Shown one piece after another: positions 32,794-40,095 of a stretch of DNA of 64,000 bases. Position numbers and translations under genes: made by a program. The notes beneath the pieces are model-generated. The model was not told the DNA's origin, did not search any database, and saw nothing but the letters and a program-made list of their open reading frames with translations. The stretch comes from an uncultured Gemmatimonadales bacterium (lineage in GTDB: Bacteria; Gemmatimonadota; Gemmatimonadetes; Longimicrobiales; RSA9): assembly GCA_963798845.1 (NCBI GenBank), contig CAWCUS010000002.1, forward strand, positions 608,001-672,000, in the 5' to 3' direction. Position 1 is the first letter of the stretch. Every line of letters starts with the position of its first letter.

Positions 32794-33432
32794 ATGACCG
32801 AGGGTGTGCGGGGAGCTGAGGGCGAGGAGATGGCGAACGCCTGGACGCACGGCGTGGGCGTGGCGGCGAGCGTGGCAGGCGGCGCGCTGCTCATCGTCTT
32901 CGCCGCGCTCCACGGGGACGCGTGGCAGGTGGTGGGCGTTTCGGTCTTCGCGGCGACGCTGCTCGCCCTCTACACCGCGTCGACGCTGTACCACACCTCC
33001 CGCTCGCCGCTCCGTAAGGAGCGCCTCAAGGTGCTCGACCACGCGGCCATCTACCTGCTCATCGCCGGGACGTACACGCCGTTCACCCTCATCGCGCTGC
33101 GGGGCGGCTGGGGCTGGAGCCTGTTCGGCGTGATCTGGGGGCTGGCCGTGGCCGGCGTGGGCATGAAGCTGGTGTACACCGGCCGCTTCAGGCTCCTGTC
33201 CACGGCGGTCTACGTGGGCATGGGCTGGCTCGTGCTCATCGCCATCGGGCCGCTGACGCGCAGCCTCGGGCCGGTCACCCTGGCGTGGCTGGTGGCGGGC
33301 GGCGTGGCGTACACGGCCGGGACCCCCTTCTACCATAGCCGCCGCGTGCCGTACGCCCACGCCGTCTGGCACCTGTTCGTCCTGGCCGGGAGCGTGTGCC
33401 ATGCCGTGGCGGTGGCCACGCTGATCGGCTGA
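32794..33432 (+). CDS. Hemolysin III / PAQR family membrane protein, copy 2
   Basis: EEMANAWTHG, STLYH, DHAAIYLLIAGTYTPF, HAVWHLFVLAGSVCH. Confidence 0.9.
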   Translation: MTEGVRGAEGEEMANAWTHGVGVAASVAGGALLIVFAALHGDAWQVVGVSVFAATLLALYTASTLYHTSRSPLRKERLKVLDHAAIYLLIAGTYTPFTLIALRGGWGWSLFGVIWGLAVAGVGMKLVYTGRFRLLSTAVYVGMGWLVLIAIGPLTRSLGPVTLAWLVAGGVAYTAGTPFYHSRRVPYAHAVWHLFVLAGSVCHAVAVATLIG

Positions 33433-33555
33433 GGTCGCACGCCCCCGCACGCTCGGAACCTCAAAGGGGCCGGCGCCCGGTGGAAGACGGATCGCTGCCG
33501 CCGCACGCGCCACGCCCGTGCAGGCGCCAGCGGAACGGGGAGGGGCAGCGGATGT

Positions 33556-33584
33556 GAAATGGCCCGCCGACGTGGCCGGCGGGC
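33556..33584 (-). terminator. Possible intrinsic terminator after cold-shock gene
   Basis: 8-bp stem gcccgccg/cggcgggc (33562-33569 / 33577-33584) with a weak CAUUUC tail on the minus strand. Confidence 0.35.
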
Positions 33585-33595
33585 GATCGGAAGGC

Positions 33596-33814
33596 TCAGG
33601 CCTCTTCCAGCCGCGTCACGCCCTCGGCCCGCGGACCCTTCGGGTCCTGCACCAGCTCGTACTCCACGCGCTCACCCTGCGCGAGGGACTTGAACCCGCT
33701 GCCCTCAATGGAGGAATGGTGCACGAACACGTCCTTGCCTCCCCTGTCGGGCTGGATGAAGCCGTATCCCTTGTCGTCCATGAAACGCACGACTGTACCG
33801 GTCTCTCGCGCCAT
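33596..33814 (-). CDS. Cold-shock protein (CspA family)
   Basis: GTVVRFMDDKGYGFI (RNP1), DVFVHHS (RNP2), GFKSL..GERVEY, KGPRA. Confidence 0.93.
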   Translation of the reverse strand: MARETGTVVRFMDDKGYGFIQPDRGGKDVFVHHSSIEGSGFKSLAQGERVEYELVQDPKGPRAEGVTRLEEA

Positions 33815-34051
33815 GATGTGATCCGTACCTGTGGGCTGTGGGTTGTGTGAGCTGCGGGTGAACTGTCGCGGGGATGCGTCGCAAGGATCGTGCTTCGTGC
33901 GGCGACGCCGGAGCCAGCGTGCCGCCTCCGCAATCGGCTCATTCAGCCTAGTCCAGTCTCGCCGTGCTCGCAACCCATACGTTTGCGCTGCCGCCCTGGC
34001 CCCCGGCGTCGTCGGCCTTGAATGCCGACGCTCACTCCGCCACCATAGGGT

Positions 34052-34825
34052 ATGGCGATGAACCGTGGTGGAAGATGCAAGTCGTGCGCCCGGCGGACGG
34101 CCCGGAGTGCGGTCCTGGCCGGGATCGCCGCCCTCGCCGCCGCCTCCGCGGGGTGTGGCGCGCGAGGACGCTCCGGGGAACAGCCGGTCCCGGACAGCTA
34201 CGCGTTCCCGGGGATCACGGGGCGCCGGTGCGACCACACGGACTCCAGGGTCCAGGACCTCGCGTTCAGTGACATCGCGCGCCCGGGGACCGCGGGGAGC
34301 ATAGCGCTCTGGGGGCTCGGGTCCGCGCCGGCGGATACGGTGGTGGTTTCCGTGCGATACACCGGGGACGGCGAGCTCGACTGGGTCCAGCTGCTGTCGT
34401 CCAACGTGCCGACGGTGAACGCGGCGGAGCTCCTGCGCCTCCTCCGGGCCGCGCTCGTGGAGCGCTGGCGGGAGGGCGCGGGCGTTCGGCTCCGCATGGT
34501 GGGCGGGCATGTGGATGCGATCCTCCCGTCGGTCGTGTGCGAGGCGTACCCCGTACGGCGGCTCCCCGGAGTCCGGCGCCCCTTGCTTACCAGCCGGGAG
34601 TACCTGGAGTACCTGGAGGCGCGCGGACAGCGCTTCGACGTGCTGATCCGCCTCGACGACCAGGGGCGCGTGATGGACGTTCAGCTGCCGCAGCCGACCG
34701 GCTATCACGCGATCGACCAGTACCTGGTCGAGTATCCACGCGACTGGGAGTACGAGCCCCGCCTCCATGACGGCATCCCGGTGGCGACCACGCTGAGGCT
34801 CAGCATCCGCGTCGGCGGCCACTGA
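34052..34825 (+). CDS. Putative lipoprotein with C-terminal TonB_C-like domain
   Basis: ASAGC lipobox; C-terminal IRLDDQGRVMDVQL..PTGY.AIDQ....W.YEP..DGIPV. Confidence 0.55.
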   Translation: MAMNRGGRCKSCARRTARSAVLAGIAALAAASAGCGARGRSGEQPVPDSYAFPGITGRRCDHTDSRVQDLAFSDIARPGTAGSIALWGLGSAPADTVVVSVRYTGDGELDWVQLLSSNVPTVNAAELLRLLRAALVERWREGAGVRLRMVGGHVDAILPSVVCEAYPVRRLPGVRRPLLTSREYLEYLEARGQRFDVLIRLDDQGRVMDVQLPQPTGYHAIDQYLVEYPRDWEYEPRLHDGIPVATTLRLSIRVGGH

Positions 34826-34902
34826 GCACCGGGCGCCCTGCCACCCTTCACATCCGTGCCGGCGCTTGATCCCGGGCGCCATTTCCGCGACCATCCAGGG
34901 CT

Positions 34903-36495
<1,593 letters not shown>

Positions 36496-36571
36496 TCGGC
36501 GCGCGGGGTCTGGCGCCCGCTCGCTCGCGCGCGGCTCGCTCCCACCGACTGCCGTCCCCTATATTGACGGG

Positions 36572-36934
36572 ATGGAAGGGAGACACCTGCTCAAGAGCCT
36601 GAAGGACGACGGCTGGTACCTCGGGGATACGGACGGCGCCTGCCGCCAGTACGTTCACGCCGAGCGTGACGGGGTGGTCACCGTCTGGGTGGGCCACACG
36701 CATGAGCTCGGCGCGCGGGCCGCCGACGGGGCAAGGGCGCGGGCGGAAGGCACGGCCCCGCCCTCGGATCCCGACGCGGACGCCACGGTCGTCGTCGAGG
36801 CCACTCGCAACGGCTTCTCCGCCCACGCCGAGGCGTTCCCCGGCTGCGTCGCCACCGGCGAGACGGAGATCGAAGCCCGCGAGCGGCTGCAAACCGCGCT
36901 CTCGCTGCACCGCGCCGGACTCCGCTCCCGGTGA
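36572..36934 (+). CDS. HicA-like / HicB-like fusion protein
   Basis: N-half LKDDGWY....GACRQYVH...GVVTV (HicA-like). C-half VVVE....GFSA....FPGCVATGETE.EARERLQ.AL..H (HicB-like). Confidence 0.68.
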   Translation: MEGRHLLKSLKDDGWYLGDTDGACRQYVHAERDGVVTVWVGHTHELGARAADGARARAEGTAPPSDPDADATVVVEATRNGFSAHAEAFPGCVATGETEIEARERLQTALSLHRAGLRSR

Positions 36935-37449
36935 GGATCGTCGCCGGGGAGTGGGCGGGGACGGACCTCACGTCCCCGGGTGGCCGCGTGCGCCCCACGG
37001 CCGAAGAAGTGCGCGACCGCTGGATTCGACTCCTGGAGCCCGACCTCCCGGGAGCCCGGGCGCTGGAGCTCTACGCCGGCACGGGGGCCGTGGGGCTGGA
37101 GGCGCTGTCGCGAGGAGCGGCGAGCGTGGACTTCGTCGAGAACAACCCGGCCACGCTGCACGCGCTGAAGGCGAACATCGCCACGGTCCGGGCTACGCCG
37201 CGGACGCGGGTCTTCACGCGCGACGCGCTCCGCTTCGCCTTCATCCTTTCACCCCGCTCCTACGACCTGGCCCTGGCCGACCCCCCGTACGGCTCGAGGC
37301 AGACCGATCGGCTGGTGGAGCGCTGGCTGGACGTGCCGTTCGCGTCCGTGCTGGCGGTGGAGCACGCCGCCGAGCACCACCTCCCGGGCTCCGCCGAGCG
37401 TCATCGGGTGGGTGACGCCACGATCAGCGTGTACAGGAGGGGAGAATGA
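36931..37449 (+). CDS. rsmD: RsmD-family methyltransferase (16S m2G966-like)
   Basis: MRIVAG, RPT, LELYAGTGAVGLEALSRGA, DPPY. Confidence 0.8.
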   Translation: MRIVAGEWAGTDLTSPGGRVRPTAEEVRDRWIRLLEPDLPGARALELYAGTGAVGLEALSRGAASVDFVENNPATLHALKANIATVRATPRTRVFTRDALRFAFILSPRSYDLALADPPYGSRQTDRLVERWLDVPFASVLAVEHAAEHHLPGSAERHRVGDATISVYRRGE

Positions 37450-38255
37450 GCGCCGGAGATCCGGGCGAGGCGTCCCGCTGGATCGCGTTCACGCGGGCGG
37501 TCGGGCCGCGGCTGGTGGAATGCGAGCTGACGCACCTGGCCCGGGCGCCGATCGACGTCGAGCGGGCGGCGGCCCAGCACGAGGCGTACGAGGCGGCGCT
37601 TCGCGGCCTCGGCTGCCAGGTCGTGCGGCTCCCCGACCTTCCGGACCACCCGGACGGCGTCTTCGTCGAGGACGTTGCCGTGGTGCTGGACGGTGTGGCG
37701 GTGGTCACGCGCCCCGGCGCGGCGTCCCGCCGCGGCGAGGTGGTCGGGATGGCGGAGATGCTGCGGCCGCACCGGCCGGTCCGCTGCATCGAAGAGCCAG
37801 CGCGCCTCGACGGCGGCGACGTGCTGGTTGCGGGGAAGCGCGTTTTCGTCGGCGCGTCCGCGCGCACCGACCTCGAGGGCGCACGGCAGCTCGCGGCCAT
37901 TCTGGAACCGCTGGGCTACCAGGTGCGGCGCGTCACCGTGCGGGGCTGTCTGCACCTGAAGACCGCGGTGACGGCCGTGGCGGACGGGGTGCTGGTGCTG
38001 AACCCCGCGTGGGTGGAGCGGGGGGCGTTCCCGGGCTTCGACACGATCCCTGTGGCCGAGCGCGAGCCGCTGGCCGCCAACGTGCTCCGGATCGGCGACG
38101 CAGTGCTGGTTCCCGCCGCGCATCCCCGTACGGCCGAACGCATTGCCGCGGCGGGTGTATCCAATCAGGTTGCATTGGACGTATCGGAACTCGCGAAGGC
38201 GGAGGCGGGGGTGACGTGCTGCAGCCTCGTGCTCCGCACGGAGGTGCCAGAATGA
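37446..38255 (+). CDS. Dimethylarginine dimethylaminohydrolase (amidinotransferase family)
   Basis: PDGVFVED, RRGE, LDGGDV, LHLKT, catalytic GVTCCS. Confidence 0.88.
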   Translation: MSAGDPGEASRWIAFTRAVGPRLVECELTHLARAPIDVERAAAQHEAYEAALRGLGCQVVRLPDLPDHPDGVFVEDVAVVLDGVAVVTRPGAASRRGEVVGMAEMLRPHRPVRCIEEPARLDGGDVLVAGKRVFVGASARTDLEGARQLAAILEPLGYQVRRVTVRGCLHLKTAVTAVADGVLVLNPAWVERGAFPGFDTIPVAEREPLAANVLRIGDAVLVPAAHPRTAERIAAAGVSNQVALDVSELAKAEAGVTCCSLVLRTEVPE

Positions 38256-38422
38256 AGCGAAGCCTCGTCGTGGCCATGGCGCTCGTGCTCGGTGCGGGAT
38301 TCACGGCATGCAAGTCCTCGACGGGCCCCGACCGGGATCCGACGCCGAAGCAGGACCAGGATCCCGGGGGCGGGAAGGCGCCGCTGGTCGGGATGGTGCT
38401 CCTGGCGCCGCCCGTCGCCTGA
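38252..38422 (+). CDS. Small lipoprotein (56 aa)
   Basis: GGAGG RBS, ATGA overlap with the upstream stop, signal MKRSLVVAMALVLGAGFTAC. Confidence 0.65.
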   Translation: MKRSLVVAMALVLGAGFTACKSSTGPDRDPTPKQDQDPGGGKAPLVGMVLLAPPVA

Positions 38423-38428
38423 AGAAGG

Positions 38429-38707
38429 GTGAAAGCCACGGCTGAAGTCCAGGTCATTCCCATCGGAGCGGGCGTGTCCGTGCGCCGCGAGGTGAAGCGC
38501 GCGCACCAGGTCCTCGTCGACTCCGGGCTCCACGTGGAGCTGCACGCCAACGGCACCAACATGGAGGGCGAGCTGGGCGACGTCCTGGACGCGATCCGGC
38601 GGGTGCACGAGACGCTGCACGCGGAGGGCACGGCGAGGATCGCGACGTTCGTGAAGCTGGGGACGCGCACGGACAAGGAGCCGTCCCTCGGCGGCAAGCT
38701 GTTCTAG
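38429..38707 (+). CDS. MTH1187/YkoF family thiamine-binding protein
   Basis: QVIPIG..SV, HANGTNMEG, KLGTRTDK. Confidence 0.82.
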   Translation: MKATAEVQVIPIGAGVSVRREVKRAHQVLVDSGLHVELHANGTNMEGELGDVLDAIRRVHETLHAEGTARIATFVKLGTRTDKEPSLGGKLF

Positions 38708-38755
38708 GGCCCGCTCGATCCCATCCCGGGAGCGGGCCGCAGCGCCGGAGGAAAC

Positions 38756-39106
38756 GTGATCGGATTCATGATGTTCATCTTCACGATCGTGGCCGGGGTC
38801 CTGGTGCTCGTCCGGGGACTCCAGTGGATCGGTCGCAGCCCCCGGTCGCTGGAGCCGCCGCGGGACGGCGGCCAGGGACGCGCCGAGCTGGAGCGCATCG
38901 AGGGCGCGCTCACGCGCCTCGAGGCCCGCGTGGACGACCTGCAGGACCAGCAGCGGTTCCTGGAGCGCCTGCTCGCCCGCCGGCAGGAAGACCCGGCGCT
39001 CCCGCCAGCCGCGCCCCGCGAACACCGGCCGTCCGCCGAAGCGACGGAAGGCGAGGCGGCTCCCTCGTCGAAGCCCGACAGCATCCTGTTCGACATCGGG
39101 GAGTAG
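38756..39106 (+). CDS. Hypothetical single-TM coiled-coil protein
   Basis: GGAGG RBS, N-terminal TM, LEARVDDLQDQQRFLERLL coiled coil. Confidence 0.65.
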   Translation: MIGFMMFIFTIVAGVLVLVRGLQWIGRSPRSLEPPRDGGQGRAELERIEGALTRLEARVDDLQDQQRFLERLLARRQEDPALPPAAPREHRPSAEATEGEAAPSSKPDSILFDIGE

Positions 39107-39135
39107 CGCGAGGAGGTCGTTCTGGGGGTGATGCG

Positions 39136-39462
39136 ATGCGGCTGACGAAGGCGGCGGAGCTCGAACGGGTGCTCGGCGATCCCATCGCCGTGATCTACAA
39201 GCACAGCCCGCTGTGCGGCGTATCGGCCATGGCGCTGCGCGAGGTCCGGTCGTTCATGGAGGACCACCCCGACATCCCGCTGTACGAGGTGGACGTGGTG
39301 CGGGATCGAGCATTGTCCCGCGCGTTGGAGGACCGGCTCGGCGTCCGCCACGAGTCGCCCCAGGCGCTGGTGCTGCGCGCCGGCGAGGTGGTGTGGCACG
39401 GCTCGCACCGCGCCGTGTCCCGCGCGGCCCTGGAGCGCGAGACCGGCGTCGACGCCGGCTGA
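39136..39462 (+). CDS. YtxJ/BrxC-like monothiol thioredoxin-fold protein
   Basis: IYKHSPLCGVS, LGVRHESPQAL, VWHGSH. Confidence 0.85.
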   Translation: MRLTKAAELERVLGDPIAVIYKHSPLCGVSAMALREVRSFMEDHPDIPLYEVDVVRDRALSRALEDRLGVRHESPQALVLRAGEVVWHGSHRAVSRAALERETGVDAG

Positions 39463-39900
39463 TCAGCGGCCGGGGGCGCCCGGAACCGGACCAGTCCTCC
39501 CGTCGACGGGGGCGTAGGAGAGCCAGCGCCGGGGCTGTACAGTCTCCTCCAGCCTGGTCGTCCCCGCCGAGGCCACGGAGGGCGGTGCGAGAGTGAACAC
39601 CGCGTCGTACGGCGGGCGGTCCCACTTGCGCGCGTACACGGTGGCGCCGTTCACTGCCCCGATGGCCTGGAGCTCGTCTTCGTCGAGCGCCAGCGGGAAC
39701 CCGGACGCGACCCAGCGGCGCCCGTCGATGACCATCGGCTGCACGGACGGCTGCGGGGGCGCGTGGACGGCGGCCACCAGGTCCGACTGCGGCCGCGTCG
39801 CCGCTTCCTCCACGGGGATGTTCGTGTCCAGTCCCACGTCCTTGCACGCCGCGAGCGATGCGGCGGCCAGCGCGACGACGAGGGCGGGTGTACGGTTCAT
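39463..39900 (-). CDS. Hypothetical lipoprotein
   Basis: AGGAG RBS; lipobox SLAAC. Confidence 0.7.
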   Translation of the reverse strand: MNRTPALVVALAAASLAACKDVGLDTNIPVEEAATRPQSDLVAAVHAPPQPSVQPMVIDGRRWVASGFPLALDEDELQAIGAVNGATVYARKWDRPPYDAVFTLAPPSVASAGTTRLEETVQPRRWLSYAPVDGRTGPVPGAPGR

Positions 39901-40095
39901 GCTGCTCCTGGAAGGATGGTCGCAACGCGGCCCGGCGCGTCCGGTACCGCCTGGCGCGGGCAAGATGCGGCCCGGGCGGAACCGGCGCCACCCCGGCGGG
40001 ACTGGACGTGCGCGGCCGCGGCCGCAACACTGTGGGGCGGCCCCCTCGGAGGAGCGGCGGCGGAAACGGATCGGCGGAACAAGGAGACACTGGCA

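Follow-up and report, generated by a model that had tools for sequence, protein, structure and literature searches.

A single-chain HicA-HicB protein lacking the catalytic histidine, probably a tamed toxin-antitoxin module, at a fixed site downstream of prfC in Longimicrobiales

What becomes of a toxin-antitoxin (TA) pair when both partners stand in one polypeptide and the toxin part has no catalytic histidine? The question is raised by a small open reading frame (ORF) at 36572..36934 on the forward strand of a stretch of 64,000 nucleotides (nt), hereafter the window, from an uncultured Gemmatimonadales bacterium (assembly GCA_963798845.1, contig CAWCUS010000002.1, positions 608,001 to 672,000; GTDB lineage Bacteria; Gemmatimonadota; Gemmatimonadetes; Longimicrobiales; RSA9). 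The ORF opens with the first start codon of its frame, an ATG, and encodes 120 amino acids (aa), in which a HicA-like half precedes a HicB-like half. We consider it reasonably likely that the product is a disarmed and self-contained protein derived from a compact hicA-hicB cassette of two genes, of the kind whose HicB has no DNA-binding domain, and the gene is probably a tamed TA module with a new job. The homology of both halves, the loss of the histidine and of charge in the toxin half, purifying selection on both halves, the fixed synteny and the dispensability of the gene in one relative are directly supported by the data. In genome and locus labels, the window genome is G000.

Sequence relatives of the fused protein

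Pfam gave low scores on the window protein, with HicA_toxin (PF07927) at residues 3-46 (E 5.3e-3; 17.3 bits, under the gathering score of 27) and UPF0150 at residues 79-111 (E 3.7e-4; 20.8 bits, under the gathering score of 27.3), and no family in NCBIfam matched the fusion. The weak Pfam scores are not a matter of chance, since a word-seeded search through 5.8 billion proteins yielded 37 full-length homologues at E<=0.01 among 142 candidates, 114-137 aa long and 49-100% identical, some of them labeled HicA-like, HicB-like or both by their source databases. Scanned one by one at E<=0.01, these homologues carried PF07927 in 33 of 37 cases (best E 1e-7), PF15919 in 16 and PF21748 in 14. The profile of the 37-protein family matched solved HicA chains through its positions 1-38 (4c26_A, E 8.4e-4; 6g26_E, E 2.2e-3) and the solved HicB3 4p78_A through positions 70-114 (E 7.4e-3).

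As a canonical set we used the ORFs from 27 two-gene hicA-hicB loci of the same class, in which HicA is mostly 55-80 aa long with the motif R-T-R-G-S-H-R-Q-Y, HicB is mostly 63-99 aa long and devoid of a DNA-binding domain, and the two genes overlap by 4 nt in most of the loci that hold both. In hhalign, the family profile aligned with that of 16 canonical HicA over 61 columns (98.3%, E 1.5e-14) and with that of 17 canonical HicB over 52 columns (99.7%, E 1.5e-26), and the family hidden Markov model (HMM) scored up to 83.5 bits on canonical HicB. Judging from these alignments, the two halves are genuinely homologous to HicA and HicB, which follow each other in this order along the chain. An earlier note, made from the letters of the window, had proposed this 120-aa ORF with a HicA-type half followed by a HicB-type half, and ORF calling, profile and hhalign matches agree with it, each half having found its own family. 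Across the class, a profile search gave some match in 113 of 401 genomes (a tally that takes in four unpublished genomes), and nearly all of these matches are adjoining pieces in different frames, i.e., ordinary two-gene hicA-hicB cassettes.

Loss of the catalytic histidine and of positive charge

The HicA motif G-S-H reads G-A-C in the window protein, as the earlier note had seen. In both HMM and hhalign alignments, C24 falls in the column of His24 of Burkholderia pseudomallei HicA (the solved chain used is the H24A mutant) and of the invariant H24 of the canonical set. This is a feature of the whole family, in which position 24 is S in 20 members, C in 17 and H in none; in the 12 loci for which we had the DNA of a fused gene, it is C, S or T. 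The canonical HicA ORFs of the class have kept the histidine in 21 out of 21 cases (20 G-S-H and one D-R-H, by manual reading of the listed ORFs). In HicA of Yersinia pestis, B. pseudomallei and Streptococcus pneumoniae, this residue (His28 in Y. pestis HicA3, His24 in B. pseudomallei HicA) is required for toxicity or RNase activity, and in HicAB complexes it is buried at the HicB interface (PMC11594946).

The neighboring signature has been retained: R25, Y27 and H29 are found in 37/37 members, Q26 in 34/37 and G22, the conserved glycine two residues before the histidine (Gly22 in B. pseudomallei), in 36/37. The catalytic loop itself has gone from vRTRGSH to GDTxGA[SC], with the two arginines before the motif replaced. 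The change in charge extends to the whole HicA-like half (residues 1-47), with a median net charge of -1 (-4 to +3) versus +7 (3 to 11, isoelectric point [pI] 10.9) in 17 canonical HicA, strong basicity being typical of the HicA family though not formally defining it. The complete window protein has a net charge of -5 and a pI of 5.6. At positions 4, 8, 25 and 41, canonical HicA and the fused family have basic residues in common, whereas a basic position 11 is peculiar to the fused family, and a reduced RNA-binding patch is possible in this half. The acidity of the protein as a whole speaks against general RNA binding, and the proposal of the earlier note that the protein acts as an RNA-binding partner loses ground with most of the basic charge of the toxin half.

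The invariant or nearly invariant R25, Q26, Y27 and H29, and the small polar residue (C, S or T) that position 24 of the fused form always has, would suit a protein that is still active, either as a fused TA system or as an anti-phage sensor in the manner of CapRel(SJ46), with the HicB-like half keeping the HicA-like half inactive until a trigger arrives and catalysis performed by residues other than position 24. Such a role has been proposed for the fused HicAB classes 11-13 (PMC10865869; bioRxiv 10.1101/2023.12.08.570793). We regard it as quite improbable here: the histidine needed for toxicity in several HicA toxins (PMC11594946) is missing from all members, the basic surface is gone, the split sister form described below has V or I at the same position, and the gene sits in a stable housekeeping neighborhood, with no PADLOC match and no close mobile relatives.

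Predicted structure

The AlphaFold2 model obtained with the family alignment had a mean pLDDT (predicted local distance difference test) of 95.8, a pTM (predicted template modeling score) of 0.87 and no segment under 50. On the HicA side it predicts helix 3-12, strands 15-21, 24-29 and 35-39, and helix 48-59, the alpha-beta-beta-beta-alpha arrangement of a fold like that of the domain for binding double-stranded RNA (dsRBD). On the HicB side, strands 73-78, 81-86 and 92-96 are followed by helix 99-119. The complete beta-beta-beta-alpha-beta partial RNase H fold is not reached, given that the fourth and last strand of canonical short HicB (...VPEP..YVEV) is missing. The chain ends at residue 120, directly past the HicB helix, and has no DNA-binding domain, in agreement with the earlier note. 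The Pro/Asp linker of that note is real, although shorter than first read, covering approximately residues 60-72, because residues 48-59 are predicted to form the second HicA helix.

Compared with 48,161 representative PDB chains by VIA-align, the model found the annotated HicA or HicB N-domain (UPF0150) fold group in nine of its best 10 matches; the remaining one, at rank 4, was 1whz, an unannotated Thermus protein aligned on the HicA-like half. Foldseek gave nothing in PDB at E<=1e-3, with HicA and HicB chains in its top rows (best HicA 6g26_E, 1.9e-2). For domains as small as these, VIA-align and hhalign are more informative.

Integrity of the frame and purifying selection

The two halves are in frame in 12 independent loci (G000, G406, G455, G456, G089, G433, G437, G435, G436, L042, L043 and L044) and form a single frame in 37 protein clusters. 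The fusion is thus not an assembly artefact, and its being unique to one assembly, which the earlier note had named as a reason for giving up its interpretation, is not the case. Public DNA reads yielded two short contigs, one of them 201 nt long and identical to 36556-36756; it does not span the junction and may stem from the source sample. Among the public sequencing runs with matching reads, none of RNA turned up.

Nonsynonymous differences per site (pN) were fewer than synonymous ones (pS) in all 66 pairs (Nei-Gojobori; median pN 0.30, pS 0.53). The closest pair, G000 and G406, had a ratio of nonsynonymous to synonymous substitution rates (dN/dS) of 0.126 overall, with 0.063 in the HicA half, 0.196 in the middle and 0.147 in the HicB half. 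Over the 13 listed pairs, the ratios ranged from 0.13 to 0.49 for the whole gene, from 0.06 to 0.48 for the HicA half, from 0.11 to 0.80 for the HicB half and from 0.20 to 0.94 for the middle region (one pair saturated), those of distant pairs being rough because the Nei-Gojobori (NG86) dS is near saturation. In nine of these 13 pairs, constraint on the HicA-like half equals or exceeds that on the HicB-like half. The dN/dS comparison proposed in the earlier note has given ratios below 1 in every pair. There are 24 invariant columns, across sequences with just 49-80% identity to the window protein.

These figures bear directly on the possibility, raised in the earlier note as a decaying relic, that the gene is a neutral remnant of a hicAB cassette. 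The protein has neither the catalytic histidine nor the last HicB strand nor a DNA-binding domain, its window copy falls under the Pfam thresholds and one relative, described below, has lost the gene cleanly, all of which would fit a remnant. Yet the frame is open and free of stops in the 12 fused and two split loci, pN is below pS throughout, the invariant columns persist at 49-80% identity, the ratio of the closest pair is low and the structural model is very confident. We find decay hardly credible.

Conserved location and vertical inheritance

Within the bacterial family of the window (73 genomes), full-length single-frame copies were found in nine genomes, belonging to the genera g1, g175 and g3, and a two-gene version in two genomes of the genus g167. 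In the class-wide sample, strong full-length matches of the fused type came from G000 and G089 only. The carriers form a small group and come from soil and sediment. The gene lies downstream of prfC in 12 of 14 loci, and in the other two the contig breaks off less than 500 nt upstream. The distance from prfC varies from ca. 15 nt to 1.5 kb, and at some loci it includes a further ORF. The downstream neighbor is less constant: the RsmD-like gene with a GTGA overlap in G000, G406 and G456, a dimethylargininase (DDAH)-like gene in G089, G437, L042, L043 and L044, and an MTH1187-family gene in G455 and G433. In both split loci, the downstream order is a cold-shock gene of opposite orientation, followed by DDAH and the RsmD-like gene. 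In L044, a short metagenome contig, a run of CTCGAA/CTCGAT hexamer repeats occupies 355-420, just upstream of the fusion.

The prfC genes of carriers are 78-94% identical to that of the window, versus 67-71% in five loci from four of the family's non-carrier genera, where other genes follow prfC. These observations fit a single acquisition within a subclade, followed by descent. In one member of the carrier genus g3, G354 (95% complete, 83% identity in prfC), the DDAH-like and MTH1187-family genes come next after prfC (L103, G354:C15:36769-41355). The distance from prfC to the DDAH-like match is ca. 0.2 kb, and neither half could be traced at this site, even by unfiltered HMM searches.

The GC content at third codon positions (GC3) of the fusion is 0.88, and that of the neighboring genes is 0.88-0.95. 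A search of 72,556 plasmids and 50,697 phage records, in which Gemmatimonadota are poorly represented, gave no close relatives and only distant two-gene hicAB, and PADLOC had no match for the fusion, for the split pair or for a further single-frame protein from G228 discussed below. The prfC synteny and identities, the native GC3 and the lack of plasmid, phage or PADLOC matches all show that the fusion is vertically inherited. The two traits of type II TA systems, two separate genes and a scattered mobile distribution, are not those of this gene, which is one ORF at a fixed site downstream of prfC. The earlier note had spoken of a domesticated TA module, and purifying selection, fixed synteny and native GC3 are all in keeping with it.

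The two-gene sister form and the origin of the lineage

The two-gene version occupies the same site in L003 (G429) and L004 (G430), where a HicA-like gene of 62 aa and a HicB-like gene of 62-64 aa overlap by 4 nt. The last HicB strand is missing here as well, and in the 13 protein clusters of this HicA-like family the histidine position is V or I without exception. At both loci, a conserved ORF stands between prfC and the HicA-like gene and ends 6 nt upstream of the latter (L004:3473-3994, 173 aa; L003:9-470, 153-155 aa, cut by the contig end); it has no NCBIfam match.

In the tree of the HicA half, a branch with support 100/100 has the 47 fused and two split sequences on the same side, separated from canonical HicA by a long 1.27 changes per column, and the fused and the split forms are each set apart by a branch of their own (98/90 and 98/81). 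The tree of the HicB half sets fused and split forms apart from canonical HicB with support 99/99 and a shorter separation of 0.84 changes per column. On the strength of these two branches, the His-less lineage, fused and split together, has a single origin.

The shorter branch of the HicB-like half, its closeness to canonical HicB of the class 1 type (hhalign and HMM scores above) and the abundance of canonical hicAB in the class (some match in 113 of the 401 genomes) would fit another role, namely, that of a trans-acting antitoxin in which the HicB-like half neutralizes incoming canonical HicA, as anti-addiction or immunity, and the dead HicA-like half caps and stabilizes it. The decoy or antitoxin idea is disfavored by the constraint on the HicA-like half, at least as strong in nine of 13 pairs (0.063 versus 0.147 in the closest one), which is unexpected for a mere cap. 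The contig G000:C2 also holds two compact hicB-hicA pairs with the histidine intact (L070:1270-1701, at ca. 552 kb, and L071:1243-1674, at ca. 6 kb). Both ordinary HicA toxins of the window genome thus have a HicB of their own, with the order B then A, opposite to that of the fusion, and this also speaks against the antitoxin role, which we judge unlikely.

Neighboring genes and a possible link to translation

Table 1. Features of the fused gene and its surroundings in the window
Feature	Position	Strand	Basis or remarks
Single-chain HicA'-HicB' gene	36572..36934	+	120 aa plus stop; 37 full-length homologues, in frame in 12 independent loci, dN/dS <1 in all pairs
HicA-like half, residues 1-60	36572..36751	+	Predicted alpha-beta-beta-beta-alpha (dsRBD-like) fold
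Codon 24, TGC, Cys, at the catalytic His position of HicA toxins	36641..36643	+	Alignment to 4c26/6g26 HicA and canonical H24 column
Linker rich in Pro, Asp and Ala, residues 61-72, of variable length and sequence	36752..36787	+	Alignment gaps, low conservation; middle-region dN/dS 0.2-0.94
HicB-like half, residues 73-120	36788..36931	+	Predicted beta-beta-beta-alpha core of HicB N-terminal domain; without fourth strand and without DNA-binding domain
RsmD-family (PF03602) methyltransferase paralogue	36931..37449	+	GTG start in fusion stop (GTGA); stop in next ATG (ATGA)
prfC (release factor 3), constant upstream neighbor	34903..36495	+	Pfam GTP_EFTU and RF3_C
CCCCTATATT, 6 nt upstream of fusion ATG (candidate -10 element)	36556..36565	+	Sole well-conserved block of the prfC-fusion spacer, G000 versus G406
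Dimethylargininase (DDAH)-like gene	37446..38255	+	NF045660, E 1.3e-66, 224.9 bits, under cut-off of 340

The stop codon of the fusion, TGA (36932-36934), shares bases with the GTG (36931) of the next ORF, 36931..37449, and the TGA of this RsmD-like gene overlaps in turn the ATG (37446) of the DDAH-like gene. Overlaps of 4 nt (GTGA at 36931-36934, ATGA at 37446-37449) therefore link the fusion to the two genes downstream (36931-38255), and this chain suggests that the three genes form one translationally coupled unit in the window genome. The earlier note had relied on coupling to rsmD as its key clue. The overlap is real, but the partner fails the RsmD equivalog test (94.9 bits on TIGR00095, under the cut-off of 117.5). 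A second RsmD-family copy of the genome (G000:C2:886947-887471; L102:2001-2528), 46% identical to the first, reaches 131 bits and is flanked by recJ and coaD, the usual context of rsmD. The coaD-adjoining copy is, on its score and context, the true rsmD, and the neighbor of the fusion a second RsmD-family paralogue. Most genomes of the bacterial family carry both types.

Looking for fused homologues beside rsmD, another proposal of the note, gave a mixed outcome: an RsmD-like gene overlaps the fusion in only three of 14 loci (G000, G406 and G456, spanning two genera), this gene is the paralogue, and the constant neighbor is prfC. By manual count, including the unpublished genomes G336, G440 and G443, the paralogue type that adjoins the fusion (best match at E<=1e-50) is present in 6/11 carriers versus 37/62 non-carriers, so there is no signal of co-occurrence. 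The five carriers without it have a best match of just 46-49% identity, which corresponds to the other paralogue.

It could still be argued that the fusion is a dedicated partner of the neighboring translation genes, either of the RsmD-like methyltransferase through translational coupling or of release factor 3 (RF3), given that the GTGA overlap has been kept in two genera and that prfC is the constant upstream neighbor. We consider such a partnership very unlikely, with the overlap confined to three loci, the paralogue missing from five of 11 carriers and present in 37 of 62 non-carriers, and a gap to prfC that reaches 1.5 kb and may contain other ORFs. Common descent accounts for the synteny.

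As for expression signals, the conserved block CCCCTATATT may be a -10 element giving a leaderless or very short-leader mRNA. We offer this as a lead only, since a scan of 36300-38800 for consensus promoters and terminators found none. The fusion ATG has no clear Shine-Dalgarno sequence in the window; other loci show GGAG/GGAGG instead. An Rfam scan of 33000-40000 gave a single sub-threshold match, to the cspA thermoregulator (33557-33794 on the reverse strand; 26.8 bits versus a gathering score of 78, E 6e-4), which overlaps a cold-shock protein gene ending at 33596.

Comparison with known HicAB systems

Fused HicAB proteins have already been described (PMC10865869; bioRxiv 10.1101/2023.12.08.570793). 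The survey of HicA contexts in which they appear distinguishes 14 classes, and its Table S1 has two Gemmatimonadota entries, in classes 2 and 3 (PMC10865869). Class 1 is the two-gene hicAB with a HicB of 57-97 aa and no DNA-binding domain (PMC10865869). Our fusion resembles it in the A-then-B order, the small sizes and the absence of a DNA-binding domain, and its nearest sequence relatives are class-1-type two-gene modules of the same class of bacteria, with their 4-nt overlap. It differs from class 1 in having one frame, a replaced histidine, a non-basic toxin half and no last HicB strand, and in being fixed by prfC rather than scattered.

Classes 11, 12 and 13 share with the fusion the presence of HicA and HicB domains in the polypeptide of a single gene, and the accessible text of the survey describes no loss of the catalytic residue for any of them (PMC10865869). 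In class 11, which a 238-aa protein of G064 resembles, the A-B fusion carries a C-terminal helix-turn-helix (HTH) or ribbon-helix-helix (RHH) domain, whereas our chain ends after the HicB helix. Class 12 (seven entries in Table S1) has the order B-A, opposite to ours, and class 13 comprises large fusions of 340-440 aa, far from 120 aa (PMC10865869). CapRel SJ46 and EzeT (as cited in PMC10865869) likewise combine toxin and inhibitor in one chain, but they are catalytically intact and activated by a trigger, whereas the fusion is without the catalytic residue.

Closer in architecture is a 139-aa in-frame HicA-HicB protein of G228 (L041:3935-4354, reverse strand), with the same order, similar size and no DNA-binding domain. 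Unlike the fusion, it has an intact G-S-H and a complete short HicB with its last strand, and it is not beside prfC. Its architecture is outside the 14 classes of the survey. In an exhaustive search, distant single-frame A-B forms of the same order and size had kept the last HicB strand, and the histidine in 14/17 cases. ESM Atlas clusters of 119-140 aa also carry both PF07927 and PF15919, although some database entries of small A-B fusions may be frameshift read-throughs. Since small A-B fusions without a DNA-binding domain are already in the databases, the fused architecture is not new in itself. The split pair of L003 and L004 shares with the fusion the lineage, the neighborhood and the lack of both histidine and last HicB strand, and differs from it in consisting of two genes and in having V/I instead of C/S/T at the histidine position.

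A limited literature search, at the level of titles and abstracts, found no description of a His-less fused HicAB. What is new here is that an entire lineage has no histidine and a toxin half stripped of its charge, and that selection maintains it at one fixed place in the chromosome; new, too, is a vertically inherited A-to-B form without the histidine and without a DNA-binding domain.

A proposed path from TA cassette to non-toxic protein

The history that we favor, that of a disarmed cassette, would have run as follows. A two-gene cassette would have settled downstream of prfC in a bacterium ancestral to one subclade within a Longimicrobiales family; the catalytic histidine and most of the positive charge would then have gone from the HicA part, and the last strand from the HicB part; and in one branch, the two overlapping genes would have become a single reading frame. 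The product is a small acidic protein (pI ca. 5.6), with the HicB-like half most likely sitting on the HicA-like half as in HicAB complexes; it would be unable to cut RNA in the fashion of HicA and would form no addiction module. As a guess at its present role, we favor a binding module without enzymatic activity, whose remaining conserved basic residues R4, K8, K11 and R25 (in helix 1 and the loop between strands 1 and 2) would hold a ligand, RNA or protein, with the HicB-like half as a lid over it.

Several points weigh against this reading. The window protein itself stays under the gathering scores of the HicA and the HicB families alike. RNases of other TA families act without a histidine; given this, and the invariant R25, Y27 and H29, residual RNase activity is conceivable, and the fusion may have some. 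The ratios of distant pairs are rough, as said above. Docking of HicA on HicB within one chain is predicted from a single figure, the whole-chain pTM of 0.87. The gene is patchy, its fused or split forms being present in 11 of the 73 genomes of the family, and the clean junction of prfC and DDAH in G354, without any remnant, means that the gene and any function that it has are dispensable in one close relative. Finally, the tree of the HicB half does not separate a split form that is sister to the fused ones from one nested within them, and both fusion and fission are compatible with the data, the fusion of overlapping genes being the simpler.

More doubtful, and put forward only tentatively, is the further step by which the TA pair would have turned into a single non-toxic pseudo-toxin, with fold and docking kept and regulated binding in place of RNA cleavage, in a neighborhood linked to translation (RF3 and the RsmD-like gene). 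If true, this would be a stepwise domestication of a TA system that can be traced from loss of the histidine through loss of charge to fusion, and sister genomes would still carry the intermediate stage of two genes. As the lineage is a narrow one, and one relative does without the gene, the case will interest mostly specialists. Labels such as "HicA family toxin" or "HicB family antitoxin" on these proteins do not imply a working toxin, and annotations should be read with this in mind. TA modules are usually viewed as selfish or defensive elements that decay after the death of the toxin. Here, a HicAB with a dead toxin has been kept by selection across several genera, and its one-gene and two-gene forms, at the same fixed site, provide a natural series for finding out what a TA fold can be reused for.

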